Part shown: in pieces, positions 5,406 to 44,830 of the stretch
Position numbering within the stretch: the stretch's first letter is position 1
Layout of the letters: every line of letters starts with the position of its first letter
IMG/VR virus record: IMGVR_UViG_3300027805_000011
Location: 3,017 to 67,016 of that record
Direction: 5' to 3' (one strand)
Source: a virus
DNA: 64,000 bases
Translations under genes and position numbers: made by a program
The notes under the pieces: generated by a model
What the model was told of the DNA's origin: nothing
Database searches by the model: none
What the model saw: the letters and a program-made list of their open reading frames with translations, nothing else

Positions 5406-5597
5406 ATGTCGTATCGAGTCACGGTTGAAGAGCTTCGCAAAGGCGCACCGCCCTTGCGGATGATTTCGCTCACGGGCGCGGATTGGCTCCAAGCCATCGA
5501 CGCGGTGACCGAAGTGCTCTCCCGCGAGGACGGCTACTTCAACCAAGAGGAAGACGACAACACGGCCACTGAGCCGGATGATGAATTACTTTCATAG
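5406..5597 (+). CDS. Hypothetical acidic protein
   Basis: 63 aa, preceded by the CATAACTCCAC motif. Confidence 0.6.
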   Translation: MSYRVTVEELRKGAPPLRMISLTGADWLQAIDAVTEVLSREDGYFNQEEDDNTATEPDDELLS

Positions 5598-6555
5598 CGG
5601 GGACTTAGGCGATGTCATCTATGCCCTGCCCGCGATCCGGGCTTTGGGTAAAGGCGATCTGTATCTGAACTCCCGTCCGTGGACGGCGAAGATGACGCCC
5701 GAGCGGGCCAACGTGCTTCGTCCGCTCCTCGAATCCCAGGACTACATCGGCAAGGTGATTCACGGGGATGCGCCGAAGTCCGAATACGTAGTCAACTTCT
5801 CCACGTTCCGGAACGGCGGGTTGATCTATGGGGTCAGCCTCATGGAACTGCAAAGCGATTGGGTCAATGCCAACGCGGAGCCGGAACCTTGGTTGAAGGT
5901 CGCGCCATCGGCCAAATCCCGTGGCCGCATCGTTTGTCATCGCAGCCCGCGATATCACAATCCGTATTTCCGCTGGGATGAGATCGGCGAGAAGTTCGGC
6001 ACGCAGCTTCTTTTTGTCGGAATGCCGCATGAAGTCGAGGAACTACGACGAGTGACCAAGATCCATGCCGAATATGCCGTCACGCAGGATTACCTCGAAC
6101 TCGCTCGGCTGATTGCGGGCGCGGATCTTTTCATCGGCAACCAATCATCCCCGATGGGCTTGGCGATCGGCCTCGGGGTGCCGTTTATCCAAGAGACATG
6201 CCTCTGGACGCCCGACTGCCTCTACCCGCGAAAGAATGGTTTCTATTCCTACAACGGAGGAATCCCGAGCCTGGATATCCCTGAGTTTATCCCCCCGCCG
6301 GATGTCGACCGCAATGTGATGCCTCCGGGCGGATGGCAAGTGATCTCCCTTCGCACGGGTGAGCGCGCCACCTTCAAGTCGCACCGCTTGGCGACCAAGC
6401 ACCTCAAGGGTTACGACCGCTATCTCAACGACGAATCCGCCGCCCAAGAGGTTGACCGGCAGAATGCGGTCCGCATCCCGCACCTCGTCCGGCGCGACAG
6501 TGCATTCCAAATCTTTGGGAAAGTTAAGCCGCTGGTCGACGCGGTATCCAAATGA
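5578..6555 (+). CDS. GT9 (heptosyltransferase-like, GT-B fold) glycosyltransferase
   Basis: N-terminal HSGDLGDVIYALPAIRAL and C-lobe LARLIAGADLFIGNQSSPMGLAIGLGVP match GT9 signatures. Confidence 0.7.
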   Translation: MMNYFHSGDLGDVIYALPAIRALGKGDLYLNSRPWTAKMTPERANVLRPLLESQDYIGKVIHGDAPKSEYVVNFSTFRNGGLIYGVSLMELQSDWVNANAEPEPWLKVAPSAKSRGRIVCHRSPRYHNPYFRWDEIGEKFGTQLLFVGMPHEVEELRRVTKIHAEYAVTQDYLELARLIAGADLFIGNQSSPMGLAIGLGVPFIQETCLWTPDCLYPRKNGFYSYNGGIPSLDIPEFIPPPDVDRNVMPPGGWQVISLRTGERATFKSHRLATKHLKGYDRYLNDESAAQEVDRQNAVRIPHLVRRDSAFQIFGKVKPLVDAVSK

Positions 6556-6959
6556 CCAACTGCGAAAAAGGCACTCACGCCGAATTGTTGTTTGCTGCGG
6601 AGGCAACCTCTCGAAAATTCAATATCTTGATCCCGATGGGTCCGACCAGCAGCACGGTCGATGTTTGGATCGTCGCGGCGGCGGGGCGTCCGATCAGTGT
6701 CCAGGTCAAACGGGCTTGGGTTGACCCAAAGCGCCGCCTGTATCAAGTGAAGGTTTCCCGCCGCGGGACGCGCAAGAAGAAGCCAGCCAAGTATAAAGCC
6801 GGCGATTTCGATATCCTTGCCGCCTATCTTCCGGACGTGAACCAGTTCGTCTTGTGGAAATTCAAAGAGATCAAGAACCGGGGTAAGATCAGCTACACTC
6901 CCCGCATCCATCGTCAGCCCGGCAACTGGGAACTCCTCGAACAGTTTGTTGCCTCTTAG
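6552..6959 (+). CDS. PD-(D/E)XK endonuclease, free-standing homing-type
   Basis: G..AELLFAA, VDVW and SVQVKR motifs in 135 aa. Confidence 0.7.
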   Translation: MTNCEKGTHAELLFAAEATSRKFNILIPMGPTSSTVDVWIVAAAGRPISVQVKRAWVDPKRRLYQVKVSRRGTRKKKPAKYKAGDFDILAAYLPDVNQFVLWKFKEIKNRGKISYTPRIHRQPGNWELLEQFVAS

Positions 6960-6990
6960 GTATTCGGCTATAATAACCGCACATCCGCGT

Positions 6991-7746
6991 ATGCTACTTG
7001 TCCTTCCCGTCAGCAAGGCCGACCTGAAGCTCGCCACCGCTCTGGCTGGCCATCTTGAGCTTTTGGGCGGGCTGGCGCGTCACAAGCTCCTTGTGGTCGG
7101 AACGATCCAGACCAAGGACGAGGCGGCGGCTCTGAAGGAGAGATTGGCCCCGCTTTTTGCCTCGGCCGACCTCTTTGTTCCGGATTCCGAGTGTGAACTC
7201 GGCTGGCCCCAAAGTGCCAATCACCTTTGGGCGCGGACGGTCCGCCACCTCCAGCACAGCGCGAATAAAGACATATGGTATTGGTTCGAGGCCGACAATA
7301 CCCCGATTCGGGAAGATTGGCTTGATGCGATCGAGACCGAATACAACCAGGCCCAAAAGCCGTTTCTGGGCGCGGTCCAGCCGACCCGGATGCTCGACCG
7401 CAAGACCCGCGAGTTCGTCAAAGTCGACGGCGAGCATGTCATCGGCACTTGTGTTTATCCGGCCGATTTCCACGGCCGCTCGCTGCTTTGGAGCTATGTC
7501 CGTCTCGATGACGGCCCGAATGTCGAACCCTTCGACGTGTATCTCCGCCACGAGATGCGTCCGAACACGGCGGTCTCCAAACTGATCCACAACAACTGGC
7601 GCACGAAGAACTACGAGATCGGACCGAAAGGTGAGATCTACTGCGACCCGATCGACGACCTCTCAGTCTACGGTCCCGTGCCCGCCGATGCCGCCGTCGT
7701 CCACGGATGTAAGGACGGCTCGCTTATAGAAGCCCTGCAAAAATGA
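6991..7746 (+). CDS. Putative GT-A-like glycosyltransferase or hypothetical enzyme
   Basis: WYWFEADNTPIREDWL resembles a DxD-like motif following a hydrophobic strand. ATG 6991 follows the TATAATAACCGCAC motif. Confidence 0.4.
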   Translation: MLLVLPVSKADLKLATALAGHLELLGGLARHKLLVVGTIQTKDEAAALKERLAPLFASADLFVPDSECELGWPQSANHLWARTVRHLQHSANKDIWYWFEADNTPIREDWLDAIETEYNQAQKPFLGAVQPTRMLDRKTREFVKVDGEHVIGTCVYPADFHGRSLLWSYVRLDDGPNVEPFDVYLRHEMRPNTAVSKLIHNNWRTKNYEIGPKGEIYCDPIDDLSVYGPVPADAAVVHGCKDGSLIEALQK

Positions 7747-10064
7747 CAAATTCCGAACTTGCTCCTCTCGAAATCCTCGGCCTCGACGAAAACGGCAAAG
7801 CGCCGAAGATGCGCGTCGACAACGTCAATTCGGCCCGTTCGATCTACAAAGCGATCAAAGACAGCGACCAAGGCTCCTCCAAGAACCGCGCCTTGGTCGA
7901 CGCCATGTTCAATGGCGCGGCTCCCTTCAATCAGCAGGATTTGATCGAAATGGGGCAGGGGGAACGAACCAACCTCGACTTCGGCGAAGCCGCTTCACTG
8001 AAAGAGCAAGCCCTCGCCGGATACTACGACCTGACCTCCTCGGTCGATGTCATGGCGCGGATCACCATCGACTACGGCTCGCCCGAGCAGCGCGTCGAGT
8101 GGGAGCGGGTCTTGGCCGAAGAATTTCACCGGACGCTCAAGGAGTGGCAGGAGTTTGAATTTAACCATCAAATGCTGGCCGATCAGTTCGTCTCGCACGG
8201 CGTCGGGGTCTGTTATTTCGAAGACGAAGTTGATTGGCGCTGGCGGGTCGCAGGCTTGTCCGAGTTCCGCATTCCGCGTGGAACACGGGCCTCCGAGTGG
8301 GAGATCGAGGTCGCCACGGTCGACCGCGAATACCAAGCGCATCAACTCTATAAATTCATTGAAGACCCGGCGGTGGCGAAGGATCTCGGGTGGAACGTCA
8401 AGATGGTCAAAGAGGCACTCATCCGTGCCTGCCGCGAGTCGACGTATCAAGAGGCCGGTGAGTGGGAGAAGCTCGAAGTCGAACTCAAAAACAACGACCT
8501 CCTCTACGGCAACAGCCGCGGGAAGAAGGTCCATGTCGTCCACATGTGGGTGCGCGAGTTCGACAAGAAAGTCAGCCACTTGATCTTCCTCAAAGACCCG
8601 ATCGGCTCGGACGAGAACGCCAAGGAAGAGGATTTCCTTTTCAAGAAGCCGAACCGCTTTGACGCCCCGACGAACTGCTTCGTTACCTTCTGCTACGGCG
8701 TCGGCAACGGGACCTACCACGGCATCCGCGGGCTTGGATACAAGGTGTATCCACACATCCAACTCCTCAATCGCCTCCGCTGTGGCATGGTCGACGGGGC
8801 TCTGCTTTCGAGCGCGTTGATCGTCCAGCCCGGCGACAACGGCTCCCGTGCGCTCGAAGATCTGACGTTGTCTTACTACGGCCCTTACGCGCTGTTCCCC
8901 CCAGGACTCAAAATCGTCGACAAGGCGATCCCGAATTATAATCAGAACCTCATTCCGGTCTTGAACGACCTGACGATGAATATGCAGAACCGCACCGTTG
9001 GCTATCAGTCGCGTGCGGTGACGCCGGATGGTCAGTCGCGGACGGCTTATGAGGTTCGCGCCCAGTTGCAGCAGGAAGCGGTGCTCGGTGCGGCGGCGAT
9101 CAATCTGTTTTACCACCCTTGGAAACGTCTCCTTCGTGAGGCATACAGGCGTTTAGTGTCGCGTGATTATGCCGCTAATGAGCCCGGCGGTCGCGAGGCG
9201 TTGGAGTTCAAGAAACGGTGCATGGCCCGTGGGGTTCCGGAGGAGGCGATCCATCGCTTCAATACGGTCGAGCCCGTCCGGGCGATCGGCTACGGCAGTC
9301 CCGGAATGCGGAGTGCGGCGATCGACGAGACGATGCAGATCTTCGGCAGCTTGGACGAGGCCGGTCGGATCAATCTTCTCCGCGACCGCATTGCCGCCCG
9401 TTTCGGTCAGGAAGTGGTCGACCGCTATCTGCCGTCGCCGTCCACGACACTTCGCACACCGATCGACGACAAGATCGCGCTCCTCGAAAACGCCACGATG
9501 ACCAGCGGCACCGGATTGCCGGTCTCCTCTGGCGAGAACCATTTCATTCACGCTTCACGTCACCTCACCGCGCTCGACGGACTCGACCAAGCGGTGTCTC
9601 AGGGTCAGGCCGAGCCGCAAAATGCGCTCCGCGCCTACCAGACCATGTTGCCGCACCTCGGAGAACACTTGCAGTTACTTGCTCCGGATGTGGCCCGTCA
9701 GGACCAGATCGCGCTCATGCGCCAGCGGTTCCAGCAACTCAATGCCTCGGGACAGCGTTTGGCCGACGAGCTTCAAGCCGCCGCCGAGCAGCAAGCCAAA
9801 GCCCAAGAGGCCGAGCAAGCCCGTGCGATCGAAGCCGAACGCGCCCGCATCGCCCAGATGGAGCAGCAGTTGGCCGAGGCTCAGATGCTTTCCCCGAAGG
9901 CGCAAGCCGACCTCGCCGAACGTCGGGCCAAACTTCAGATGCAGATCGAGAAACACCAGATCGACATGCAGACCAAGCAGGCCAAGGTCATGCAGGAGCT
10001 TGCGCTCAAAGACGCCAAAACCGCTGCCGAGATTGCCCCGGCTGCACAACCGATGATTCCGTGA
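7743..10064 (+). CDS. Portal protein
   Basis: 773 aa between terminase and head genes, with a Gln/Ala-rich C-terminal coiled coil as in P22-like portals. The call rests on size, position and architecture. Confidence 0.8.
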   Translation: MTNSELAPLEILGLDENGKAPKMRVDNVNSARSIYKAIKDSDQGSSKNRALVDAMFNGAAPFNQQDLIEMGQGERTNLDFGEAASLKEQALAGYYDLTSSVDVMARITIDYGSPEQRVEWERVLAEEFHRTLKEWQEFEFNHQMLADQFVSHGVGVCYFEDEVDWRWRVAGLSEFRIPRGTRASEWEIEVATVDREYQAHQLYKFIEDPAVAKDLGWNVKMVKEALIRACRESTYQEAGEWEKLEVELKNNDLLYGNSRGKKVHVVHMWVREFDKKVSHLIFLKDPIGSDENAKEEDFLFKKPNRFDAPTNCFVTFCYGVGNGTYHGIRGLGYKVYPHIQLLNRLRCGMVDGALLSSALIVQPGDNGSRALEDLTLSYYGPYALFPPGLKIVDKAIPNYNQNLIPVLNDLTMNMQNRTVGYQSRAVTPDGQSRTAYEVRAQLQQEAVLGAAAINLFYHPWKRLLREAYRRLVSRDYAANEPGGREALEFKKRCMARGVPEEAIHRFNTVEPVRAIGYGSPGMRSAAIDETMQIFGSLDEAGRINLLRDRIAARFGQEVVDRYLPSPSTTLRTPIDDKIALLENATMTSGTGLPVSSGENHFIHASRHLTALDGLDQAVSQGQAEPQNALRAYQTMLPHLGEHLQLLAPDVARQDQIALMRQRFQQLNASGQRLADELQAAAEQQAKAQEAEQARAIEAERARIAQMEQQLAEAQMLSPKAQADLAERRAKLQMQIEKHQIDMQTKQAKVMQELALKDAKTAAEIAPAAQPMIP

Positions 10065-10273
10065 GGGACTACAAAAAAGAATACGAAAGCTACCATGCCT
10101 CTCCGGTCCAGAAGAAGCGCCGCGCTCAACGCAACGCCGCCCGTCGGAAGATGAGCAAACTCGGCCACGTCTCCAAAGGCGACGGCAAGGACGTGCATCA
10201 CCGCAGCGGGATGAGCAACCACATGTCGAACCTCGCCGTGTTGCCGAGGTCCGTGAACCGGAGTATAAAATAA
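10061..10273 (+). CDS. Small HNH endonuclease-like protein
   Basis: GTG 10061 overlaps the portal stop. Sequence RDYKKEY...GDGKDVHH...NL...SVNR. Confidence 0.75.
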   Translation: MRDYKKEYESYHASPVQKKRRAQRNAARRKMSKLGHVSKGDGKDVHHRSGMSNHMSNLAVLPRSVNRSIK

Positions 10274-10274
10274 C

Positions 10275-10508
10275 ATGCCAGCTTATTATCCAGAGGGTGA
10301 TACCCCGCTTCGTGAGGATTACACCGAGCGCAGCCTCCAGAAGATCAATTCTGTCCTCTATGCGGCCAGCCCGACCTGGGACGACATTGTGCTGACCTAT
10401 GCCGGCAGCAACCTGACCAAAGTAGAATATAAGTTGAATGGCCAGATTGTTGAGACCCGGAACTTCTCTTACACCGGCACCAATTTGACCCGCGTCCTGA
10501 AAAGCTAA
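10275..10508 (+). CDS. Small virion protein of the MPxY(Y/F)PE family
   Basis: MPAYYPEGDTPL is identical to the N-terminus of 2991-3176. Confidence 0.7.
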   Translation: MPAYYPEGDTPLREDYTERSLQKINSVLYAASPTWDDIVLTYAGSNLTKVEYKLNGQIVETRNFSYTGTNLTRVLKS

Positions 10509-13117
10509 TGTCTTGGAGCTTTAATCCCTTTACCGGCAACCTGGATCTCGTCGGTTCCGGCGGCGGCACGAGCTACATAGACGGCGACGTCGAATACCAC
10601 AGCAATCTTCCGGTGACCGCTGGAACGCCCGCGGTGAATAGCGCGTTCCTTGTGAGAAAAGGCGAGGGGCTGTATTTCATCTCGCGCAAGCCTGCTGGAA
10701 TCTGGGTGCGTGAGTTGAACAACGGAAATTTGGACGATTGGAAATTTGCGGGCCTTTTTAGTGATTTGTATCGGGATGCGAATTTTAGGATCATCTCGGA
10801 TTCTGACGTCAGCAAAGAATTGGCTTTCGATGTTTCGGGCGTAACCACCGGCACCACCCGCACGATCACCGTCCCGAACAAAAACGTCACGCTGGACGAC
10901 GCTGGCGACTCCCGCACCCCGACAAGCCATGCGGCCAGCCATGCGGCGGCTGGAAGTGATCCTGTCTTCAACCAAAATCTTAACACGGCGGACAGCGTTG
11001 AGTTTGGCGAGCTTTTAGTTACTGGCGCCGTAAATTTTGCCAACGCAGTTCTAAACGATTTTAGCTTCAATACAAGCGTCCTACTTAAAGACAATAATGA
11101 CCACATTGGAACGCTTAGTGTTGATGCAGACAGCTTGTCAGCCAACCGTTTATACACGCTCCCCGACGCCTCTGGCACGCTCGCGCTGACCACAACGGCA
11201 CCAGCCTCCCACGCCCACGGCAACCTCACGAATGCGGGGGCCATCGGCTCAACGGCTGGCTTACCAGTTGTAACAACCACTTCGGGCGCAATTACAACGC
11301 TTGCCCTTGGAGCGGCCAACACGGTTCTCAAGGTCAATAGCGGTGGGACGGCAGTGGAGTTTGGTGCGGCTGGCGGCGTCACCAGCGGAAACATTGATAA
11401 CGCTGTCCTGCGGGCGGACGGAACTGGTGGAAGCGCAAGTCAAAGCTCCGACCTAATCGTAGACGATCCAGTAGTCGCCTTCGCCTGCACGGGAGACGCA
11501 TCAACCGACATCATCACGACGGTTGGTCATAATTTCACCGAGAACCAGCGTGTTCGTTTCCAAAGTCTTACGGGCGGTAGCGGCTTGTTTTTTGGTGGGC
11601 CAGCATCAAGCACGACCTATTTCGTCCGCAACATCTCGGGCAACACATTCCAAGTCTCCACAACCAGCGGCGGCGCGGCGGTCAACTTCACCACCAACAT
11701 AACGGCGGGTGCCGTCCTCGCGATTCAGCGCAATCTCACGCTTCGCACAAGGAAGCAAGCGTTTTCCATGACGGCGGATGCCGCTACGAATGTGATCACC
11801 GCCACGGGCCATACATTCGTCAATGGAGACGCGGTCAGTTTCTACAATCTGACTGGTGGCAATGGCCTTGACGAAGTATCGCGCTGGTATGTCATCGAGG
11901 CCGACACCAACACATTCAAGGTTTCCAACTCGTTAAACGGCACCGCCCGCGACATCACGGCAGACTACACGGGCGGCACCGTTGAATTGGAAATCCCGCT
12001 TGTCCTCGGCCTACCGCGTTCTTCCGCGCTTATACTCGGAGACAAGCCAGACGGAACCCTTATCGGAGGAAATTTGCGCGGCTATGGCGCGGTGGATTTT
12101 CAGACGAACCGCAACGGCCAGAACGCCATTGCTTCTGGCCCATTTTCGTTCATCGGCAACGGCCAAAACAATACGGCAAGCGGAACTCGCGCAACAGTCC
12201 TTGGCGGCACAGGCAACACGGCCAACAATACGGATGCTGTTGTTTGCGGTGGAGAGGCGAATGGTGCAAGCGGTGTGCGTTCTATTGTGTGCGGCGGTTC
12301 AAGCAACAACGCAACTGCACAATGGGCCTGCATCGGCGGCGGAACTGAAAATACAAATAGTGGCGTTGCTGCATTTGTTAGCGGTGCAAGCAATACTGCC
12401 ACAGGAGCGCAGTCTGGCATTCTATGTGGAAGAAACGCGGGAGCGGATCGCGAAAATATATTTGCCCATGCAACTGGTCGCTTTGGCGCGCAGGGTGACG
12501 CGCAGACAGTCCGCGTCTCTTTAAGAAACCGCGCAAGCACCGCAACTGCTGTTGAGTTGTTCATGGGATTCAACGCCGATGCCCGATTTCCCATTCCATC
12601 GGGAAAAACCATGTCGGCACTCATTAACATTATTGCCGCGACCAGCGGGGGCGAATTTGCCAATCGTTATGTCCGCGCCGTAACCATTGCCAATCGCGGC
12701 GGCACAACGGCACTGCGCGGAGGCGTTAAGGACATAGACACCGACGAGCAGATCGGTGGTGCTGATGTCACGATCTCGGCCAACGACACGAACGATGCCA
12801 TCCGCATTGAGTTCAGCGGGGTCGCCCCTGTCACGGGATGCACTGGAACGGCGTCCACAGATCGCATCAACAAGGTTGCTCACGGCTACTCCAACAATGA
12901 TGACATTGTCTTCACCTCGCTAACAGGTGGCGCGGGCCTCACGGCGAATACCGTGACTTATTGGGTCATCAACGCAAACGCCGACGATTTCCAAGTTAGC
13001 GCAACTCGCGGCGGCGCCGCCGTGAACATCACGACCGACTACACGGACATGACCGCCGCCCGACTTTTCCGCGTAGTCGCAGGAATCGACGCCGTTGAAG
13101 TAGGCCACGGAACATAA
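10508..13117 (+). CDS. Tail fibre / receptor-binding protein
   Basis: 869 aa, Gly/Thr/Ala-rich. Three H-x-F...LTGG..L...Y.V....F.VS beta-modules and adhesin-like GG..NTA(S/N)G repeats. Confidence 0.8.
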   Translation: MSWSFNPFTGNLDLVGSGGGTSYIDGDVEYHSNLPVTAGTPAVNSAFLVRKGEGLYFISRKPAGIWVRELNNGNLDDWKFAGLFSDLYRDANFRIISDSDVSKELAFDVSGVTTGTTRTITVPNKNVTLDDAGDSRTPTSHAASHAAAGSDPVFNQNLNTADSVEFGELLVTGAVNFANAVLNDFSFNTSVLLKDNNDHIGTLSVDADSLSANRLYTLPDASGTLALTTTAPASHAHGNLTNAGAIGSTAGLPVVTTTSGAITTLALGAANTVLKVNSGGTAVEFGAAGGVTSGNIDNAVLRADGTGGSASQSSDLIVDDPVVAFACTGDASTDIITTVGHNFTENQRVRFQSLTGGSGLFFGGPASSTTYFVRNISGNTFQVSTTSGGAAVNFTTNITAGAVLAIQRNLTLRTRKQAFSMTADAATNVITATGHTFVNGDAVSFYNLTGGNGLDEVSRWYVIEADTNTFKVSNSLNGTARDITADYTGGTVELEIPLVLGLPRSSALILGDKPDGTLIGGNLRGYGAVDFQTNRNGQNAIASGPFSFIGNGQNNTASGTRATVLGGTGNTANNTDAVVCGGEANGASGVRSIVCGGSSNNATAQWACIGGGTENTNSGVAAFVSGASNTATGAQSGILCGRNAGADRENIFAHATGRFGAQGDAQTVRVSLRNRASTATAVELFMGFNADARFPIPSGKTMSALINIIAATSGGEFANRYVRAVTIANRGGTTALRGGVKDIDTDEQIGGADVTISANDTNDAIRIEFSGVAPVTGCTGTASTDRINKVAHGYSNNDDIVFTSLTGGAGLTANTVTYWVINANADDFQVSATRGGAAVNITTDYTDMTAARLFRVVAGIDAVEVGHGT

Positions 13118-13611: not shown

Positions 13612-13710
13612 CCCCGCAGCATATTAAGAATGAATGTTTCCGACCCGCTCAACTATGGAATCAACCCCACCGACATGTCGTCGGGTCGGAAGAGTGCTGG
13701 CTTGGCAAAA

Positions 13711-13929: not shown

Positions 13930-13938
13930 TAACCGCAC

Positions 13939-14217: not shown

Positions 14218-14218
14218 T

Positions 14219-14697: not shown

Positions 14698-14698
14698 G

Positions 14699-15217: not shown

Positions 15218-15223
15218 CTCCAC

Positions 15224-15511: not shown

Positions 15512-15514
15512 TTT

Positions 15515-17094: not shown

Positions 17095-18270
17095 ATGGCT
17101 TGCCAAAATATCGAAGCTCTCTTCGTCGAACATGCCGGACTGATCCGGAACAATGTCGCGAAGAACATCATCAACTCCGATTTCTACCTGAAATATCTGC
17201 CGCGTGAGCAGTGGATGGACGGTCAGGGAACGGAATATCAATACCCTATCTACGAGCGCACGCTTTCTAGCTCGCCCGTTTCTTTCTCGGCATGGGAAAG
17301 CTCGGACGGCGAAGCGGGTGGTCAGTGCCAGATTGCCGGTCAAAACATCGACAATTTCGGCATCACCCTGCGTTCGACCAGCCTGAAAAAGGCCGCGCTG
17401 AACTCGCCTGACATCTGTTTGGACGACCTTCAGTTCGCCTGGCAGGTGGAAGATCAGGTCAAAAACATCGTTCGTGTCCTCTCGGAGAACACCAAGTGGG
17501 TCTGGACAAATGCTTATCAGGACGAATACATCGACGCCTGCGGAACCAAAATGGTTGCAGCGCCGAACCTTCCGTCCGGTAGCGCGACCTTCCCGCTCTC
17601 TCCGGCAACTTCCAAGTTGACCTGGGGGATCCTCGAAGAGATCTACCAGCAGTTGGGATACAACGGCGGCGGCATCAATCCGTTCGCCCGCGTGGACGAG
17701 ATGACGCCTATTTACGCCGCTGTCGGCGAGAGGTTCACCTTCCATGATCTCAAGCGCCAAGACGCCAACACCCGTGACGATTTCCGTTACGCTTACGAGG
17801 GTTCGGAGACCCAGTCGCCGATGCTCGGAGCGCCCGGTCTGTCCGGCGTGTATCGCGGCTTCCGCTTCTTCACCGTCGAATTCCCGCCCCGCTACGATTT
17901 CGTTGGCGGTCAGTGGGTTCGCCGTCAGCCCTTCGCGTCGACCCCGACGACCAAGGGTCACAAGTGGGAAGTTTCGGATGCGTATAAGAACGCTGAATAC
18001 ACGGACACCGTGATTTATCACGCTGACGTGCTGAAGGTTCTCATTCCCAAGCCGAAGACCACCAGCCCGATGAAATACAATCCGCAGTATTCCTGGACCG
18101 GCGAATTCGTTTTCCGGAATATCCCTGACCGCGATTGTAATATCGACGGCAACGTGGGCTTCTTCCGGGCGCTGTTCGCCTACGGCCCCAAGATTGAGCG
18201 TCCTGACCTCGGCTTTGTGGTCCGCCACAAACGCTGCGCTCGCGCCCTCGACTTGGTCGCTTGCTACTAA
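17095..18270 (+). CDS. Major capsid protein
   Basis: 391 aa after the scaffold, with SD AAGGAG, its own promoter and a downstream hairpin. The call rests on position and size. Confidence 0.8.
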   Translation: MACQNIEALFVEHAGLIRNNVAKNIINSDFYLKYLPREQWMDGQGTEYQYPIYERTLSSSPVSFSAWESSDGEAGGQCQIAGQNIDNFGITLRSTSLKKAALNSPDICLDDLQFAWQVEDQVKNIVRVLSENTKWVWTNAYQDEYIDACGTKMVAAPNLPSGSATFPLSPATSKLTWGILEEIYQQLGYNGGGINPFARVDEMTPIYAAVGERFTFHDLKRQDANTRDDFRYAYEGSETQSPMLGAPGLSGVYRGFRFFTVEFPPRYDFVGGQWVRRQPFASTPTTKGHKWEVSDAYKNAEYTDTVIYHADVLKVLIPKPKTTSPMKYNPQYSWTGEFVFRNIPDRDCNIDGNVGFFRALFAYGPKIERPDLGFVVRHKRCARALDLVACY

Positions 18271-38000: not shown

Positions 38001-41000
38001 ACACCAATCCCGAGGGTCGGGCGCGGGCCACAGCCATCCGGGATATCCAGATGTCGCGTGCCGCCAAGTTTGCCGGACGTGCCACCCGGCAGCAGACGGC
38101 CCTAGGGGATGACGCCGTCTTCGATACAGGCGCTTACGCTCTCTACATCAACCTCGATGCGCCGCACCCTAACGGCAGTCCGGTTGGGACCGTTCTCCAT
38201 GAGTTCAACCATGTGGTGCTCGACGCCAAGATCGACGGTCTGATCGAGCTCAATCCGACCGAGCGTGCCGCGCTGGAGCGGCTGCGGGCCGAACGCCGTG
38301 CTGCGGTGATCGAAGCCGCCCGCCGCCTCGACATCGACTTGCCGTCCAACCCGTCAGAGGCCGAGATCGATTCGGCGTCACAACAGATTTACCAGTTGGC
38401 TGAGACCATCACGCCGGAGCAGCTTGACGCCCTAGGAATCGACAACGCTCGCGCTCTCGATGCCCTGACCAGCGACCGGGAATTCGCCAACGACATCATC
38501 AGCCGGCCCGACGTGGCCGATCTCCTGGTGAACCTGGGTCGCGGCAAAGCCGGGGGCAAGCCGACCACGCTCCTAGGAGCCATCCGCAAAGCCTGGGACG
38601 CCCTGGTTGAATTGATCTCTGGAGTCAAAGCCGACCCGAACTCGCCGCTGGCGCGGGCTTTCAAGGACAGTTGGACTTTGGTCTACGCCAGCAACGGGGC
38701 AGAAATGGACGACACGTCCTTCACCATGCCCGAGGTGATGCGCTCCGAGCTTGCCGCCGAGATGCAGACCCAAGCCGAGGTCAACGCTTTCATCGAGCGC
38801 GAGCTCGACCGCCGCAATCTGGCCGGAACCGCCGAAGAGCGAAACCGCTTGCTCTCCGAGTTCCGTAAGGAAACCGAACCAGAAGCCCCAGCCCAAGAAG
38901 AGGGGGCGACCGAAGAGGACACCGAGATCGACGAGGAAGAGCAGCTTCGTCTGGCCCGCCAGCGGGTGCTCCGCGCGATGGGTATGGAGGGCCGTGAAGA
39001 CGATCCGGAGGTGTCGGCGTTCGATCCGGATGTAGTCAGTCGCGCCGTCGAAGTCATGTCCGAAAACGAATTCGTGCAGTGGGCGCAGGCCAACGGATTC
39101 CAGTTCCTCGACCCGCGTGCCGTTTACCGGAACACGATTCTGGAGAAAGCGATCCGCGATGCAGGAAAGCCTCCCGTCCCAAAGCAGAAGCAAAAACAGG
39201 CCAAGGCCGAACCCAAGAAAGAGGACGACGACACCGATCCGCCGCCTCCGCCTCCGGGCGGCAAGCCTCCTAGGAAGCCGCCGACGCAAACACCGCCCGG
39301 AAAAAGCCAAGCTCCTCCGACGCCCGCGCCGCCTCCACAACGCAGAGACCGCGGGACTCTCGGCGTAACCCCGCTGACACCCAAAGCCCGCGCCAAAAAA
39401 CTTTTGGATTCGATCCCCGAGGAAAACCGCGGGCAGTTCAAAACTTCGAAAGGTGATGTCCAAGCCGGAACCCGCATCTACAAACGGTCACGGGCCAAGG
39501 ATGGTTCACTGAAAGAAACCCGGTCCGGAGAGGTAAGTCAGTCCGTGCATTTCGTGACGCGGGTCGTAGGCGACAAAGTCTTCACCCTGCCAGCAATCAC
39601 TTTCGATTCAGGTTCGCGATCGGCGCAGTGGAACGACCAGCAGGAATACTCACAAAAAGATTTCCAAGATCTCGTCAAGAAAGGCGACATCGAGGTCGAA
39701 ACCGACCCCGCCCTTCCCGTGGGAAGAAGCGTCTACTCGCCAGAAGAAGGCCGCATGATTTCTGTTATGCCCGCCGCAACGCAGATAGATCCTGACGCCA
39801 CGGCCGGTGCTGCACCCGTCAATGAAAACGCGCCCGATTTTGTTGATGTGCCGCCTAGCGAATCCCGCATCGAAGCCTTCCGTCCAAGAGTCATCGAGCC
39901 GGTGACCAAAAAGACCTACACCGGCGGCACCTACACGATGAAGGGTATCCTGCGTTCAGTCTTCGAGTATCTCGATCCTAGGGCAGGGGATATGTGGCTC
40001 AAGAGCCGGGCGGCGATCAAGGCCGAGGCCAGCCGGGTTGACGATTTGGCGGACATCCTCAAGAAGCAGCTTTCCGAGTTGAAGAAGCAAGGCCAGGAGT
40101 TCTCCTCAGACCTTCTCAACACCGCCCTAGGAAACCTGGAGAACCCGCTGACCACCGATCAGATCAGGGAAATCGAATCTCTTTCCGGTGGCCGGACGAC
40201 TTTCACCGGAGAAGACGGCGAGACTTACACGACCGATCCCGCAGGCGAACTGCGTGACGAGTATCTCCGCGCCAACCGCAACGCTTTCCGTGCCAAGCAA
40301 CGTCTGGCCCTCAAAGAGCTTCCGGAAAACGTGGCCAGCACCATCGCCGAGATGTCGGCGCACATCGAATCGCTTTCCAAGAAACTTCCGAAGGAAGGCA
40401 TTGTCCACGGCGACCTCAAGATCACGGTCGACGAAGCCCTAGGAATTTATCTCAACCGCAGTTACGCAATCTTCGACGATCCGAAGTGGGCGGACAAAGT
40501 GAAGAAGAACGCTCCGGTCATCGCCGCGGCCCGCCGCTATATCAAAAACCAACTGGTCAAAGACAAGGCGAGCGAACTCTTTTCCATCGCGCAGGAAAGC
40601 GGAAGCCCGATCTCCAAGGAGGAGGCTTTGCGGCGAGCCGGTGAGGTCGTCATCGATGACGATGTGGAAACAGCTTTGGAAAGCTACTTGTCGGTCGGGC
40701 TCGACGCGCCGTCGATCGGCATCCTTTCCGGACGCATCCCCGGACAAAAGAATCTTTCGATCCTCTACAACCGCAAAAACATTGCCCCTGAGATTCAAGC
40801 TCTGTGGGGGCGTTACGACGATCCGACGATCAACTACGCCAAGTCCGTCCTCAAGCTGGCCTCATTAGTCTCCAACCACCAGTTCCTCAAGGAGCTCCGC
40901 GCCGAAGGTCTCAAGGAAGGCTGGCTCTGGGATCCCAACTCAAACACCGAAAAGCCGGTTGGGTTCCAGCGCATCGCGAGCGAGAAGAACCGCTCTCTCG

Positions 41001-42853
41001 AACCGCTGGCTGGCATGTATGCCATGCCCGAGTTCCTCCGCGGTTTGGAGACGGTCTTCTCTCCCGACACGCTGGAATCGCACAACTACTTGATGCGCTA
41101 CTTGACCAAAGCCACAGGCATCACGATGGGTATGCAGACGGTCGGTTCCTACGCGGCACAGGTCCGCAACTACTTGGGCAACTTTCTCAAGCTGCTGGCG
41201 ACAGGGAATTTGGGACTGGGCGACATCGCCAATCCCGAATGGCGCAAAAATCTGGCCTTCGCGCACCGCGCCGCCATCGCCGATGTTTTCAAGAGCTACG
41301 GGAAACAGGACCGCAAATTCTGGCGCAACGAGATCGACAAGCTCATTCGGCTCGGGGTCTTCGGCGAGTCGATCACCACCAACCTGATCGACGACTTGGT
41401 CGGCTTGAGCAAAGCGGCGACCGACGGGCAGTTCGACAACAAGTTCAACCAGATCATCGGACGCCCCGCCATGCAGATTGCCAAGCTGGCGCAGGATACC
41501 TATGCGGCTGGCGACAACATCTTCAAGGCGATGATCTTCTTCTCGGAGCGGGCCAAATACGCCAAAGCCATGCCCGAGCTCGACAAGCAAAACGTCGACG
41601 CCGAACTGGGCATCACCGACCTCGACCGCAAGGCCGCGCAGATTTCCCGCGACATTCACTGGACCTACTCGCTGGCTCCGCAGATCGTGCAAGATCTCAA
41701 GCGCGGTCCGGGCGTGTTCATCGCGCCGTTCATCACCTTCACCACCGAAGTCATCCGCACGACGATCAACACTTTCAACCTCGCACGGCAGGAGATTCGC
41801 GACGGGCGGGCCAGCGGCAACCAAGACCTCGAAGCGATCGGTTGGGGGCGCATCCGCGGTCTTACCGCGGCAGCATTGCTGCCCTCGGCGGTCGGCGCTG
41901 GTATCGCGGCTATGTTCGGGAACGACGGCGAAGATGAAGAAAACCTGCGCCGCTTCCTGCCCGACTGGCAGAAGAACAACCAGTTGGTCATGCTCGGTAA
42001 CGAAAACGGGAAGATCAGCTTCATCGACATGTCTTTCCTCGACCCGCACGAGTATTTCAAAAAGCCGCTCAAAGCCTTCTGGCGTTCCCTTACCGACGAT
42101 GACGCCACCGCCACCGAACGGATCAGCGGGTCAGTCATCAGCGCGGTCGGTGAAATACTCAACCCGTTTACTAGCGAGCAGATCTTCGCCGGAGCTATCG
42201 CCGACGTGGCCCGCAACCGCGACGAGGCCGGACGCCAAGTCTGGAACCCGCAGGACACCGCCGCCCGCAAAGGTATGGCTGTGGCCAACCACATCTTCAT
42301 TCAACCGTTTATGCCCGGCACCGGACGAAGCCTCGGACGTATCGGAGCCGCGGCGCTCGGCTGGCAGGGAGACACAGGGCGGGCTTACAGCCTACCCAAT
42401 GAACTGGCCAGCATGTTCCTAGGACAGCGCATCAGCCAAGTGGACGTCAATCAGGCCCTAGGGTTCTCGGTCAACCGTTTCCTCCGCGGTCAGCGGGACG
42501 CCTCGACCTTATTCACAAGAGAGTTCACCAGTGAGGGAACCCGCTCCCCCGCTGGGATTGTGTCGTCCTATGACCGGGCCAATGAAGCTCACCTCTCCCT
42601 GGTCTCGCAGATGCGGAAAGACTACAAAGCGGCCCTAGGGCTGGGCGGCATGACCGTGGACTCGACCCGCCGGAAGATGAAAGAGGCCGGCATGGGTAAG
42701 GAGAGTATCAAAGAAGTAACCACCGGCATCTTCACGCCCTACCAAGCCAGCAAAGAAATGGTCGATAGCGTCCGCCGCCGCGGTCTCAACGACCGGATCA
42801 ACGCCTACGAACAGGCTCGCGACATGGTCCCGCAGCGAGAAGTCCTGCAATAA
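32006..42853 (+). CDS. Giant internal virion protein (large polyvalent-type) with zincin HExxH motif
   Basis: 3615 aa. Gly-rich membrane-like helices at about 32.3-33.3 kb, VLHEFNH at 38198-38212, Pro-rich linker at about 39230-39340, LPD38-like C-terminus (inferred). Confidence 0.7.
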   Translation: MAIRDTINLLTEDEPLELLDTFRSRRESFDEPATLDLASDPEAEAQDFADMPQEPVEMPPDETERAERRRQAMDEFYSDPTNIEGLQENDDELPGEGVGLARFRPSAGEEYGIGLRRGGKQLQGLAGGFIGLVSDALGIEAGADWGLEQYRSAMEEAAESEAFITDPFEQIDGIGDAGLYAAGLLGEQTYQLMSSVLGAGIGYGVGRSIANRVIANEIGKRTAAGLTKEAAEKAVRDEVTENALRVASIPVSEKGFSKGGAITGAYLTNFGMISGGTYGQIEEETGLRDPGTAAAFSAGGAALDTLGEVFLASKFLKPFSRGVEAKPGISLPAKPRTVGGVARSAGLGALTGGAVEGGVEGAQTGIEQAAVGAADPDQTIGERLAAPGASRERAIAAAAGFTVGGALGGPGGVLEALAPKTAQKIRDKGTQENQEQEQPAPSELPGDWSETITVGGLPMRYSEAIDQWAVVNPPENFPNTTNLADGTRVYLVPERTSSGQALSQAARARLSALRGENVEGIEDFTEDEQQEEEGEETELTPFSANTPVLFKPFDGDTQLKAIVRGYDADGNAEIDVFDPENVLGAPEGKARTNLAPWWSEKSGLTQPERTQPENVGEIETARGGLSIGPRIVARREVVSKDQLGRLALDAEAQLTDEQRQRQETLKAELLARRAKPGLDVSDDESSVDAEQEQIDEAQQRDRGESEAFINSLDPGTPVSVIRFNPEGRTTLGRNDGQRFEDAFFLRRLSNGNALFQLRPVRRADQRTSEVPPKGGSREQLEPGVEFQGASPRKEFVAERTANMIELKPSEFNLVTFRGLPTSRPANPIDDQINDIVAALGGNPSGQELAAALGTIYEGPGFPTRSFFRDGVATGNNPGIGIRWRNKRDGSPEKVGQSYGIFGLRWMGEEGTAGRPEKVEMPQIPRKQRQGEDRAAAAERYGREMGTYKNTLDGLALNTLRQMDRGLVVEVEGGFEVERMLRDPLRTFELEQIPDTRRATYQEPSKSGRSTVTRTRPRRFRVTAVRWRGNIARQGKNPLDFSISAALDPLSPEAESRARQQLKETGETDYRPSQVAGTQRGLGILKDIYRFDLRRREQSETAQGTSQTSLTRLLQQSRMTDAQLREAGKTREQVEKELADLGTAIVERPDVGIGKLREFAQRTQSGRYEFVATSEARLRAIELSGGREPNKAQLDRAIDETLAAENLTRDEVITALTEFDKSVEFLASLDPDARNVVEKLLTDVDNYVNASRQVPTRTPGTARADILDLALVRAKNTRLRDIRMAIERAKKKGGRPIQNLSVRDRGNIMRLYLEALDEIRAERADKRVQAEETKIYGGTRGRSDQIQQLLAEAREAGIQDAATILDRKTPIDKARRLIAEARRGMRRTERSVAPGAGQAQRLMRDIENVVERGGVSGVPDAKSVFERMEALVESGAIPQAKKDLVRTNLLNETQANLEKDFKEAKARVIKKLENDQSRYRDEPARDVFPREKTSKSGKSIAAKRVPARRVLTVPTAQIRAEYDYLENIPKVFGDLLKKNPFFTVVDAVRSAARSLESQQRLGRAESMPQGEPAPAQSQQELLEETNRPDRFGMDAPNFARREYWRRVEDLDNVFGNGARALLFRGFGLTESGKRAVTQGKANQFYRAFLEMTETGKLSPKTLRRWSARKNFPAGDRARFIRILDYLIDPNQYGRRTAQPAARAVGASTQPLTVAQPGVAGDPRTQRGVAPRPDSGPITRGLSAEQLMAGTGESRPEGSARQDGVGGPVGAGGTAASGPGTVRDGAAGGVRGPGIRVASQPRTIRTLSRAATRRLVGLAGRSAGLTDAELAAIPDEEIRRAYVALMTTADQTATLAGRNAIGQSPVPMAERFTQTGEQLLTAAAKENADYMANKQRVDRLRQNIGLALRARAFGNPSEFFKAVAADNQQPANLRMLAKEFLKLQGRGLDIDGVALQVGAFGRNFNSDPITEKEIKSKIRLKDGVYTVSTSAGKVTHSGTPDTNPEGRARATAIRDIQMSRAAKFAGRATRQQTALGDDAVFDTGAYALYINLDAPHPNGSPVGTVLHEFNHVVLDAKIDGLIELNPTERAALERLRAERRAAVIEAARRLDIDLPSNPSEAEIDSASQQIYQLAETITPEQLDALGIDNARALDALTSDREFANDIISRPDVADLLVNLGRGKAGGKPTTLLGAIRKAWDALVELISGVKADPNSPLARAFKDSWTLVYASNGAEMDDTSFTMPEVMRSELAAEMQTQAEVNAFIERELDRRNLAGTAEERNRLLSEFRKETEPEAPAQEEGATEEDTEIDEEEQLRLARQRVLRAMGMEGREDDPEVSAFDPDVVSRAVEVMSENEFVQWAQANGFQFLDPRAVYRNTILEKAIRDAGKPPVPKQKQKQAKAEPKKEDDDTDPPPPPPGGKPPRKPPTQTPPGKSQAPPTPAPPPQRRDRGTLGVTPLTPKARAKKLLDSIPEENRGQFKTSKGDVQAGTRIYKRSRAKDGSLKETRSGEVSQSVHFVTRVVGDKVFTLPAITFDSGSRSAQWNDQQEYSQKDFQDLVKKGDIEVETDPALPVGRSVYSPEEGRMISVMPAATQIDPDATAGAAPVNENAPDFVDVPPSESRIEAFRPRVIEPVTKKTYTGGTYTMKGILRSVFEYLDPRAGDMWLKSRAAIKAEASRVDDLADILKKQLSELKKQGQEFSSDLLNTALGNLENPLTTDQIREIESLSGGRTTFTGEDGETYTTDPAGELRDEYLRANRNAFRAKQRLALKELPENVASTIAEMSAHIESLSKKLPKEGIVHGDLKITVDEALGIYLNRSYAIFDDPKWADKVKKNAPVIAAARRYIKNQLVKDKASELFSIAQESGSPISKEEALRRAGEVVIDDDVETALESYLSVGLDAPSIGILSGRIPGQKNLSILYNRKNIAPEIQALWGRYDDPTINYAKSVLKLASLVSNHQFLKELRAEGLKEGWLWDPNSNTEKPVGFQRIASEKNRSLEPLAGMYAMPEFLRGLETVFSPDTLESHNYLMRYLTKATGITMGMQTVGSYAAQVRNYLGNFLKLLATGNLGLGDIANPEWRKNLAFAHRAAIADVFKSYGKQDRKFWRNEIDKLIRLGVFGESITTNLIDDLVGLSKAATDGQFDNKFNQIIGRPAMQIAKLAQDTYAAGDNIFKAMIFFSERAKYAKAMPELDKQNVDAELGITDLDRKAAQISRDIHWTYSLAPQIVQDLKRGPGVFIAPFITFTTEVIRTTINTFNLARQEIRDGRASGNQDLEAIGWGRIRGLTAAALLPSAVGAGIAAMFGNDGEDEENLRRFLPDWQKNNQLVMLGNENGKISFIDMSFLDPHEYFKKPLKAFWRSLTDDDATATERISGSVISAVGEILNPFTSEQIFAGAIADVARNRDEAGRQVWNPQDTAARKGMAVANHIFIQPFMPGTGRSLGRIGAAALGWQGDTGRAYSLPNELASMFLGQRISQVDVNQALGFSVNRFLRGQRDASTLFTREFTSEGTRSPAGIVSSYDRANEAHLSLVSQMRKDYKAALGLGGMTVDSTRRKMKEAGMGKESIKEVTTGIFTPYQASKEMVDSVRRRGLNDRINAYEQARDMVPQREVLQ
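37077..37475 (+). CDS. Candidate nested (overprinted) acidic protein in an alternative frame of the giant gene
   Basis: 132 aa, with an AT-rich start context and a protein-like Leu/Glu/Asp pattern. The host frame becomes Gly/Arg/Ala-rich low complexity over this span. Confidence 0.5.
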   Translation: MDAEQPNQRPAQSEPQRNPSPSPNRESQEILGPNGESPLDPIVAPLLAAYLLNNSWPELASRVPKDLLDRMGSGDQLALGELLQADPELFETEPLEAFEDLAFESLLNPERSELSPEQLPDDSSDSPDEVPV

Positions 42854-42857
42854 CATT

Positions 42858-43451
42858 ATGATAGTGAAAGACCCGAGCGTCATGCCTCCGGGGGGTTGGC
42901 GCTACATCCAGCCCGAGACGGGCTTCGAGTTCTCGGCCTCGACCCTGCGTGCGGTTGTTCAGAAAGTAACCGAGCATCGCAAAGCCAATGGGCTGACCCT
43001 AGGGGATCCTAGGGCGGACATAGAAGACTTCGTCTGTGCCCAGCTTCCGGCCGGCAGCGCCGACTGCACCCACGTCATCGACGGGGACTACGCTCTCAAG
43101 TCGCACTTCACAATGGAGGACGTGAAGCGGTTCATCCAAGCGGCCATCTCGGCACTCGGCTCCCGTGGGCTCGTCGATCAAGCCGAAGCCGAACGCCGTG
43201 CCGCGATCTGTGCCGCATGTCCCCTCAACACGACCGTTGGCGGATGCTGGCGGTGCAAGGGGTTAGCCGATTGGCTCTTCAAGCTGATCGGTGCGCGGAA
43301 CACGGCACACGCTGGACGGCTTAATCAGTGCGGTGTGTGCGGCTGTTCGATCAAGGCGAAGATCTGGCTCCCGCTTGATGTGGCGCAAGGAGTCAGTGAA
43401 GGATATAAATTCCCATCCTGGTGCTGGCTCAATGGAAACGGTTCGGAATAA
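42858..43451 (+). CDS. Cys-rich putative zinc-binding protein with N-terminal VMPPGGW motif
   Basis: CAACPLN, CWRC, CGVCGC and a terminal CW. Confidence 0.65.
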   Translation: MIVKDPSVMPPGGWRYIQPETGFEFSASTLRAVVQKVTEHRKANGLTLGDPRADIEDFVCAQLPAGSADCTHVIDGDYALKSHFTMEDVKRFIQAAISALGSRGLVDQAEAERRAAICAACPLNTTVGGCWRCKGLADWLFKLIGARNTAHAGRLNQCGVCGCSIKAKIWLPLDVAQGVSEGYKFPSWCWLNGNGSE

Positions 43452-43734
43452 TTATCTTGGACTCTTCCGCTGGTTCCTCCGGAAGCTCTTCCCCCTTCAT
43501 CTTCGCGACCTCCCGCTGGAGAGCGCGATTGACCTGATTGGAAAGGGTGACCGAGGAATTGATCGCGTTAAGAAGAAGCGTCTGCTGAAAGAAGACTTGC
43601 TCAAGTAGGGCGTCTCCTTCGGACATACCTTCCTTCTCAGCGGCCTCGTGTTTCTTGCCGAGGTAAGTGGCGACAGCTTTCAGGCTGTGGCTGTGGATGG
43701 GGGCATCGATGGGCTGTGTGGTTTCTTCGTTCAT
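43429..43734 (-). CDS. Hypothetical protein
   Basis: ATG 43734 overlaps the methyltransferase stop. Confidence 0.6.
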   Translation of the reverse strand: MNEETTQPIDAPIHSHSLKAVATYLGKKHEAAEKEGMSEGDALLEQVFFQQTLLLNAINSSVTLSNQVNRALQREVAKMKGEELPEEPAEESKIIIPNRFH

Positions 43735-44237
43735 AAATCTTTCTCCAAGACAATCGCCCACGAGTAGTCGGCGAAGTCTTCCTCGGCCAAGACCTTGGCG
43801 CGGATGTTGCCGGTCTTCAGCACGCGCTTCTTGAAGGTCTTGAGTGAGTAGTCGGCTTCTTTATGGGCGGCGTTGAGTCCTTGTCCGGTGGCCGCGCAGT
43901 GGGCCTCGAAACGCTGCTGGTCGGGGGCCAAGATAAGCAAACGCCCGCCCGGCTTGAGAACGCGGAGCCATTCTTTGACCGCGATGATCTGGTCGGCGTA
44001 GGTGAAGTCTTCGATCAGGTGCGAGGCGTAGACCCAGTCGAGGGTGCTGGGCTTGAAAGGCAGCTTGCGGGCGTCACCCCCCAAGTGCTGCGGGGCCGAG
44101 CCGACCGAGGTGTAGGGCTGGGTCATGTCGAAACAGATGGCATGTGGCACGAGCGGGTCGCCGCCATAGCCCAAGTCGATGCCGTAGCCCTGCGTATACG
44201 GCAGGAACCAATCGCGGTGTTTGCTTGTTTCACTCAT
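43731..44237 (-). CDS. Class I SAM-dependent methyltransferase (small-molecule or glycan type)
   Basis: GIDLGYGG (motif I), GDARKLPF, YASHLIED and RVLKPGG. Confidence 0.82.
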   Translation of the reverse strand: MSETSKHRDWFLPYTQGYGIDLGYGGDPLVPHAICFDMTQPYTSVGSAPQHLGGDARKLPFKPSTLDWVYASHLIEDFTYADQIIAVKEWLRVLKPGGRLLILAPDQQRFEAHCAATGQGLNAAHKEADYSLKTFKKRVLKTGNIRAKVLAEEDFADYSWAIVLEKDL

Positions 44238-44830
44238 AATACTTGCTTGAGGATCTCCAAGCGGCGCTCGTTTTCGAGGGCGGGCAGATGGAGGATGAGA
44301 TCCCCTTTCTGCCAGTGAGCTTCTTCGGCTCCAGGGTATTCGTAAGCCCCCGGCCAATAGGAATTCATGGTGCGTTGGGCGCGGATGTCGAGGAGGCGGT
44401 CATACGGTGGATGCGAGGTCAGCCAACGGATCGCTGTTTGCTCGGGGTTGATTAGGTTGGCAACCAACTGCCGGCCGTAGCCGGAAAGGGCAAAGAAGAA
44501 CTGGCGGGTGAGGAGGCTATTGGCGATGAACATGACCCCGGCATTGGGACCGTGGACATCACAAGTCAAAGCGAGCGACGAGGATCTGGGTTCGCACTTG
44601 GCCGGATTGGTTACCGCGGCATCGGCATCGAGCCAACAGACCAAGCGGTGACCGCGCTCCAAGTATTCACGGATCATCGCGACCTTGGCCCAGAGACACC
44701 CTTCCTGCGGCACGGTGCGTGCTTCATGGTGCATGGACCATGTTTCAGCGAGCCGTGCATGGGTCGGCACGGTCAGGGCTGCGACCTCGGACATGTTCTC
44801 CGAGTAGCAAGTGATGACGGCGGGATTCAT
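44234..44830 (-). CDS. GT34 (GMA12/MNN10-like) glycosyltransferase
   Basis: WAKVAMIRE, WLDADA (DxD motif), NAGVMFI, EQTAI, GDLILHL. Confidence 0.75.
   Translation of the reverse strand: MNPAVITCYSENMSEVAALTVPTHARLAETWSMHHEARTVPQEGCLWAKVAMIREYLERGHRLVCWLDADAAVTNPAKCEPRSSSLALTCDVHGPNAGVMFIANSLLTRQFFFALSGYGRQLVANLINPEQTAIRWLTSHPPYDRLLDIRAQRTMNSYWPGAYEYPGAEEAHWQKGDLILHLPALENERRLEILKQVL

Follow-up and report, generated by a model that had tools for sequence, protein, structure and literature searches.

A PPGGW domain shared by a GT9-like glycosyltransferase and a cysteine-rich protein family near the head genes of an uncultured phage

Predicted glycosylation genes lie at two sites in the genome of an uncultured phage, IMG/VR virus record IMGVR_UViG_3300027805_000011 (71,476 bp, rated complete by CheckV). 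We analysed a 64,000-nucleotide stretch of this record (positions 3,017 to 67,016; hereafter the window), in which an earlier note had described a dispersed glycosylation system linked by a short shared motif. All five genes of that system were found at the coordinates the earlier note gave. They encode a GT9-like glycosyltransferase (GT; P0001), a cysteine-rich protein (P0002), a possible GT-A enzyme (P0003), an S-adenosylmethionine (SAM) methyltransferase (P0004), and a GT34-like enzyme (P0005). P0001 and P0002 share a domain named here PPGGW. The genes and domains are listed below by window coordinates, with AlphaFold confidence given as the predicted local distance difference test (pLDDT) and the giant open reading frame (ORF) 5' of P0002 given by its length.

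5578-6555, plus strand: GT9-like gene, whole (P0001)
5578-6279, plus strand: GT-B catalytic core of P0001, aa 1-234 (pLDDT 94.5; structural matches to GT9)
6304-6480, plus strand: PPGGW domain of P0001, aa 243-301 (outside every GT9 structural alignment; family-conserved; hhalign E 2e-10)
42858-43451, plus strand: cysteine-rich gene P0002, 197 aa (starts 4 nt after the 3615-aa ORF)
42867-43049, plus strand: PPGGW domain of P0002, aa 4-64 (model pLDDT >90; near-invariant in 27 homologs)
43095-43436, plus strand: cysteine-rich C-terminal domain of P0002, aa 80-193 (conserved cysteines)
6991-7746, plus strand: P0003, probable GT-A-type glycosyltransferase, ATG at 6991 (language-model neighbours, invariant residues, fusions)
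43731-44237, minus strand: class I SAM-dependent methyltransferase P0004 (PF08241, 37.5 bits against a cut-off of 21.2)
44234-44830, minus strand: GT34-like GT-A glycosyltransferase P0005 (PF05637, 30.5 bits against a cut-off of 23)

The domain shared by P0001 and P0002

The earlier note pointed to a VMPPGGW match between the C-terminal extension of P0001 and the N-terminus of P0002. This match is real: it lies within a domain of about 55 residues that is homologous in the two proteins. Both quoted peptides are in frame (DRNVMPPGGWQVISLRTG at residues 244-261 of P0001 and DPSVMPPGGWRYIQPETG at residues 5-22 of P0002), and across all six frames of the window PPGGW was confined to these two genes. 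The two proteins aligned by BLASTP with an E value of 7e-5 across 52 residues, and profile-profile alignment (hhalign) of the P0001 extension against the N-terminus of P0002 gave a probability of 96.9% and an E value of 2e-10 over 52 columns. The AlphaFold models (pLDDT 94.5 for P0001 and 87.8 for P0002) contain a matching beta-hairpin and two helices at the domain, which in P0002 are formed by strands 14-17 and 24-27 and helices 30-43 and 51-62. The motif match therefore has the structural backing on which the earlier note had made it depend. At the DNA level the motif was identical at 33 of 57 positions, with synonymous differences, which indicates that the likeness has been held at the protein level; the same figure rules out a recent duplication as its origin. 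In P0001 the domain is followed by a helical tail that runs to 6555.

A combined profile of the domain retrieved 729 clusters at 50% identity from 1.84 billion proteins searched. Nearly all had the architecture of P0002, some were GT9-like, and some were stand-alone proteins of 64-123 aa; with a local hidden Markov model, the GT9 core was found joined to PPGGW in 44 ORFs. No Pfam family covers the domain in scans of the window proteins and of the P0001 and P0002 homologs, and its isoelectric point (pI) is not markedly basic (medians of 6.4 and 8.5). Three of the top matches to the profile (1751, 1816, and 594 aa) were tandem-repeat false positives. P0001 has 319 homologs. In most of the phage members, with identities as low as 31%, a C-terminal extension begins with PPGGW, and many homologs carry degenerate forms such as CPPGKW, PVGGW, and PKHGW. 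Homologs on contigs of 250-590 kb stop right after the catalytic core.

Two of the stand-alone proteins were located, one of 73 aa (L189:5001-5222) and one of 123 aa (L190:488-859), both with stops and starts that overlap those of their neighbours. They lie between homologs of terL (E 1.6e-61) and of a conserved protein in the portal position (E 1e-60), which suggests that the PPGGW domain itself ties its carriers to head and packaging genes. As proposed in the earlier note, a role for the domain in docking or substrate recognition is plausible. The 123-aa protein also has a basic N-terminal tail rich in Lys, Ala, and Pro.

P0002 belongs to a very widespread family with no Pfam entry or structural relative, which accounts for nearly all of the 729 clusters. 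The family includes at least 69 metagenomic homologs, each some 200 aa long; down to about 27% identity they keep PPGGWRYxQPETG, a helix bearing HRxAN, and eight to nine cysteines. C118, C121, C130, C133, C158, C161, C163, and C189 are invariant or nearly so, and an AERRAAIC motif is also conserved; from this pattern, the C-terminal domain is probably metal-binding. Pfam scans of 27 homologs gave only scattered zinc-ribbon matches, and a profile search of PDB with the family gave nothing useful. Searches for structural relatives in PDB (Foldseek), BFVD, and AFDB clusters returned only uncharacterised or insignificant matches, and the best VIA-align hit to 48,161 PDB representatives had a Z of 3.8; the match lists were filled by the N-terminal domain, and the C-terminal cysteine domain was barely probed by them. 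P0002 was also considered as a small terminase subunit or HNH nuclease. Both were rejected, given that candidate small genes are already present 5' of terL and that P0002 has no invariant His.

Cultured phages in INPHARED gave no match to P0001, P0002, the portal-position protein, or the DNA. The sole clear homolog of P0002 among 185,579 species genomes was on a 56-kb contig (L187; CAYZPV010000044.1) binned to an uncultured Opitutus metagenome-assembled genome (MAG). This is probably a phage contig, and its binning gives a weak hint of a verrucomicrobial host for such phages.

Predicted glycosyltransferases and methyltransferase

The assignment of P0001 to GT9 holds by fold, though its sequence scores under the Pfam gathering cut-off. 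In VIA-align the model matched WaaC best (Z 15.6, root-mean-square deviation 3.5 A, 219 aligned), followed by 3tov (15.1), WaaF (15.0), and TibC (14.3), with the next non-GT9 GT-B folds at Z 8.0 or less, and Foldseek matched it to 3tov with an E value of 2.7e-8. Residues 1-234 have the same two-lobe GT-B fold as the GT9 enzymes WaaC and WaaF (PDB 2H1F, 2GT1, 1PSW) and the Veillonella protein 3TOV. All GT9 structural alignments end at residue 234 yet span the whole target, which indicates that PPGGW supplements a GT9 fold that is complete without it. Compared with GT9 enzymes, P0001 has a shorter core (234 aa rather than about 320) and the extra C-terminal PPGGW domain. In sequence, the likeness consists of a weak PF01075 match in the donor-binding lobe and a conserved N-terminal G-D motif. 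PF01075 was the sole recurring family among the P0001 homologs (8 of 27 matched at E <=0.1, best 4.4e-4), and a profile search of PDB with the P0001 family gave nothing useful. D9 and D12 in an SGDLGD motif are invariant in the family, as is a GNQSS motif, and an N-terminal Asp may be equivalent to Asp13 of WaaC.

P0003 is a probable GT-A enzyme on indirect evidence. The earlier note's call is favoured by language-model neighbours, which were families of the GT-A clan (0.88-0.93), by the invariant residues E100-x-D102 and H238, and by gene fusions. P0003-like sequences are fused 5' of the GT9-like core in five loci and to a methyltransferase in three genomes (G009, G010, and G012). Profile searches did not add to this call, as no Pfam match was found in 27 members and no profile match in PDB. 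In addition, hhalign found no relation between the P0003 family and the GT34-like P0005.

The GT34 and methyltransferase calls were both borne out by scores above the Pfam gathering cut-offs. The P0005 match spans positions 131-232 of the 238 in the PF05637 profile, with a D-A-D motif in the sequence, and no PDB relative was found by sequence; homologs are present in L004-L006 and L009, with a more distant one in L142. P0004 contains the glycine-rich SAM motif DLGYGGD. The two genes are translationally coupled, the ATG of the methyltransferase overlapping the stop of the GT34-like gene as ATGA.

Gene order in the window and in relatives

Four further genes frame those described above.

1193-2971, plus strand: terL, large terminase subunit; marks the left edge of the head-gene interval (PHROG 2, E 2.4e-17)
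6552-6959, plus strand: PD-(D/E)XK nuclease-like gene between two GT genes (Pfam PF11645, 37.5 bits)
7743-10064, plus strand: 773-aa conserved protein in portal position (homologs 3' of terL and P0002 in 39 loci)
32006-42853, plus strand: giant 3615-aa late protein (from the ORF listing), directly 5' of P0002

The plus-strand late operon runs from terL through a 4.7-kb interval of small genes to the 773-aa portal-position gene, then through tail-fibre-like and other structural genes to the 3615-aa ORF and P0002. A capsid candidate lies at 17095-18270. Replication genes occupy the minus strand from 44.8 kb onward and point toward the P0002 end of the operon. The name of the portal-position protein describes its location, as Pfam, PHROG, and PDB searches, profile searches included, gave no match that would identify it as a portal. 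Within the interval, the start of the PD-(D/E)XK gene overlaps the stop of the GT9-like gene as ATGA, and the stop of P0003 overlaps the start of the portal-position gene (7743) in the same way. The sequence TAATAAC lies directly 5' of the P0003 start codon (6963-6990) and AATAAC directly 5' of that of P0002 (42845-42857).

Close relatives keep the order of terL, GT9-like gene, PD-(D/E)XK gene, P0003, and portal-position gene, and they keep P0002 convergent with the methyltransferase, together with either GT34 or a P0003-like fusion. In relatives with 80-96% identity in the flanking genes, the PD-(D/E)XK gene shows just 44-53%, and it is absent from L133, L134, and L136; by these comparisons it resembles an insert that has been swapped or is mobile.

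In other relatives the genes that are dispersed here stand together. In the complete 71.9-kb genome L142, the giant protein gene is followed, at 6537-12503, by P0002, a GT9-like gene with PPGGW, a methyltransferase gene (its product 41% identical to P0004, E 9e-41), a GT34-like gene, and three more overlapping genes. This cluster is a fuller version of the system. All of its genes are on one strand, and the last six overlap in series, with a gap of about 800 nt between P0002 and the GT9-like gene; of the three extra genes, two have no assignment and one is a second methyltransferase-like gene. P0002 overlaps the GT9-like gene in L164 and L170. In L139, L143, and L161 the order is terL, in some cases a methyltransferase, a fusion of P0003-like and GT9 (with or without PPGGW), and a further P0003-like gene, convergent with P0002 and the giant protein. 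Six more complete genomes have P0003-like genes on the P0002 strand, 1.5-2 kb 3' of P0002. L002 and L004-L012 have methyltransferase homologs convergent to P0002; in L142, L161, and L164 such homologs adjoin the GT9-like gene. The slot that GT34 and the methyltransferase fill here is taken by P0003-like-methyltransferase fusions in G009, G010, and G012. Single-gene fusions convergent to P0002 were also observed in L010 (10978-12288, minus strand; P0003-like and methyltransferase) and in L014 (10569-11825, minus strand; GT2 and methyltransferase), the latter in the slot of the GT34 and methyltransferase genes.

All nine complete genomes that carry a GT9-like gene also carry P0002. Since the enzyme genes are contiguous or fused in relatives, the dispersed genes of the window appear to form one functional system, as the earlier note had proposed, and by this comparison their products probably work together. 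P0002 has a fixed place of its own in the head module. It lies between homologs of terL and of the portal-position protein in 43 loci, usually with overlapping stops and starts, and directly 3' of a giant protein (at least 1500 aa) in 28 loci.

Proposed role and alternative explanations

The explanation we lean toward, while rating its chances at somewhat under even, is that a soluble cytoplasmic enzyme set attaches a methylated glycan to a phage protein that is produced while the head is assembled, and that PPGGW is a docking module borrowed by the GT9-like enzyme. The GT9-like enzyme and the probable GT-A enzyme P0003 would be supplied from the terL-to-portal operon, and the coupled GT34-like enzyme and methyltransferase from the far end of the structural block. 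PPGGW would dock onto a conserved head-assembly partner, such as the portal, the terminase, or the core of the giant protein. The GT9-like enzyme, having borrowed the domain, would then glycosylate at that head-assembly site, and the acceptor of the glycan would be a virion protein. P0002 would use PPGGW in a general assembly role that has no need of glycosylation, possibly with a metal-bound cysteine domain. The earlier note had placed a methylated glycan on either the virion or the host surface. A methylated sugar fits the coupling of a GT to a methyltransferase, but none of the five proteins P0001-P0005 has a membrane segment, which speaks against a route through the periplasm or the host surface. 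A more specific version, which we regard as doubtful, makes PPGGW a portable address tag for the assembly site of the portal, terminase, and ejection protein; the tag would recruit P0002, the mini-proteins, and the GT9-like enzyme, so that an internal or portal-proximal component would be glycosylated in situ. We know of no described targeting mechanism of this type for virion glycosylation. If PPGGW is a docking tag, the search for its partner would turn to the portal, terminase, and giant protein, and the result could show by what means phages direct modifying enzymes to their own particles and provide the first functional clue for the cysteine-rich family.

Several observations weigh against the proposed head-assembly glycosylation. 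P0001 reached only 17.5 bits against Pfam PF01075, under the cut-off of 22, and its GNQSS motif appears to differ from the canonical GT9 donor-binding motif; together these suggest that the donor may be other than ADP-heptose. The GT34 and methyltransferase genes are on the strand opposite to the late genes, where they stand last in the leftward block of replication genes; the earlier note's description of the system as late-expressed suits the two genes in the terL-portal operon. The distribution of P0002 also counts against the proposal. A GT9-like gene was present in 9 of 29 complete P0002-bearing genomes and absent from 20, neither a GT9-like nor a P0003-like gene was present in 13 of 38, and a recognised glycosylation gene lay within 5 kb in only 18 of 78 P0002 loci. 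One of those 13 genomes (G013) has a GT2-methyltransferase fusion beside its P0002 homolog, generic GT families not having been searched in the others. P0002 is thus often found without these enzymes, which suggests that its core function is independent of them, and it is not a dedicated member of a glycosylation pathway. Complex prediction for P0001 and P0002 gave a score of 0.04 (mark 0.32), which counts neither for nor against binding.

The same distribution is what would be expected if PPGGW were a generic structural or oligomerisation accessory, shuffled between phage genes with no common partner, and P0002 had nothing to do with glycosylation. Adjacency to GT genes would then reflect hot spots for accessory genes, and an insertion hot spot at the operon ends could indeed account for it. 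The varied GT content beside P0002 (GT34, GT2, P0003-like, DUF6492, and unknown genes) agrees with such shuffling, and the hairpin thumb of TibC offers an example of a module that serves oligomerisation. On the other hand, P0002 and GT genes adjoin in at least five gene orders, some with overlapping reading frames, and nearly all phage GT9-like members retain the domain, if sometimes degenerate, but the copies on very long contigs do not. The stand-alone proteins, moreover, occupy a fixed slot between terL and portal, which points to a specific role. We rate a partner-less accessory as quite possible, if less likely than not.

Modification of the host envelope, for example of the lipopolysaccharide (LPS) core at the cytoplasmic face, would block superinfection or keep progeny from sticking to debris. 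The closest solved structures to P0001 are the LPS heptosyltransferases WaaC and WaaF, and a homolog-bearing contig is binned to an Opitutus MAG, of a Gram-negative lineage. This explanation is nonetheless improbable, as the enzyme set comes without membrane segments, a flippase, or lipid-carrier enzymes, and the translational coupling of the GT9-like gene and P0003 in the head-gene operon would be late for a change of envelope. A link between PPGGW and terL-portal genes also has no obvious meaning for LPS, and no integrase was noted, a lysogeny module not having been looked for. Lipid A-Kdo in particular is an unlikely acceptor for P0001. Glycosylation of phage DNA, of the kind carried out by T4 beta-glucosyltransferase (BGT) and by metavirome GT-A and GT-B DNA glycosyltransferases, with PPGGW and the cysteine-rich domain as DNA-binding modules near the packaging machinery, finds some support in the PD-(D/E)XK nuclease gene between the GT genes and in the Lys/Ala/Pro-rich basic tail of one stand-alone protein. 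There are phage GT-B enzymes that attach heptose and Kdo to 5-hydroxymethylcytosine (5hmC), and such GTs occur near terminase genes (bioRxiv 10.1101/2023.12.21.572611). Known phage DNA pathways, however, need a ThyA homolog or a C5-cytosine methyltransferase route for the hydroxyl acceptor (PMC13326640), and neither thymidylate synthase (PF00303) nor C5-cytosine methyltransferase (PF00145) was found in the complete 71,476-bp genome with searches whose controls worked, which disfavours DNA as the substrate. Tet/JBP (PF12851) was likewise not found in the complete genome, a result that is uninformative as its control was silent. In addition, PPGGW lacks the markedly basic pI that DNA binding would suggest, and the best structural matches of P0001 are to GT9 rather than to T4 BGT. 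Phage DNA glycosyltransferases (T4 BGT-like GT-B, and GT-A in 5mYOX or ThyS clusters) resemble the present case in that GT-A and GT-B genes occur in phage genomes, sometimes near terminase, and they differ in the accompanying ThyA homolog, 5mYOX, or C5-cytosine methyltransferase. Of all the explanations considered, this one strikes us as the most improbable.

For glycosylation of a phage protein at a head-assembly site, TibC is, by analogy, the nearest mechanistic precedent. It is a GT9-like protein heptosyltransferase whose add-on hairpin and Cys4 finger assemble the oligomer and hold on to the substrate (PMC4358343). The bacterial autotransporter heptosyltransferases (BAHT) TibC and AAH (PDB 4RAP, 4RB4) have a GT9-like core as in P0001, and TibC glycosylates a protein. 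In BAHT enzymes an N-terminal beta-barrel, an inserted hairpin thumb, and a Cys4 iron finger are present in one chain (PMC4358343). Here, the hairpin-containing add-on is on the enzyme P0001, at its C-terminus rather than inserted as in TibC, and the cysteine-rich domain is on P0002, which shares the add-on. TibC forms a dodecamer. The alignment starts at residue 1 of P0001 and covers TibC residues 98-385 only, and P0001 has no Cys4 cluster. Without the beta-barrel and an in-chain Cys4 finger, P0001 was ruled out as a member of BAHT.

To our knowledge, virion glycosylation has been shown by experiment only for mycobacteriophages, which by analogy are the nearest biological precedent. [quoted passage not shown] These systems and the present phage both encode soluble GTs and a methyltransferase beside structural genes. 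They differ in host type and enzyme families, and the system described here, known from genes alone, has two gene sites, a docking-like shared domain, and a cysteine-rich partner family. New among its elements are the shared PPGGW domain, the P0002 family, and the fixed position of that family in the head module. Cluster O mycobacteriophages, whose virions are glycosylated, also carry many copies of TGTTCGGNNNCCGAACA (PMC11600133). This sequence resembles the TGTTCG-N4-CGAACA boxes at 53769-57606 of the window, a likeness that may be coincidence.

Two further genes just 5' of the GT9-like gene encode paralogs rich in Ser and Thr (about 21%), at 3169-4146 and 4149-5042 on the plus strand (mutual BLASTP E 4e-40). 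They have a common N-terminal MPxYFPE module and a common C-terminal ending, LYK(S/T)TLGTGLGLP, and their homologs are kept at this position in relatives. Judging by composition and location, the two proteins are possible glycan acceptors or decoration proteins.

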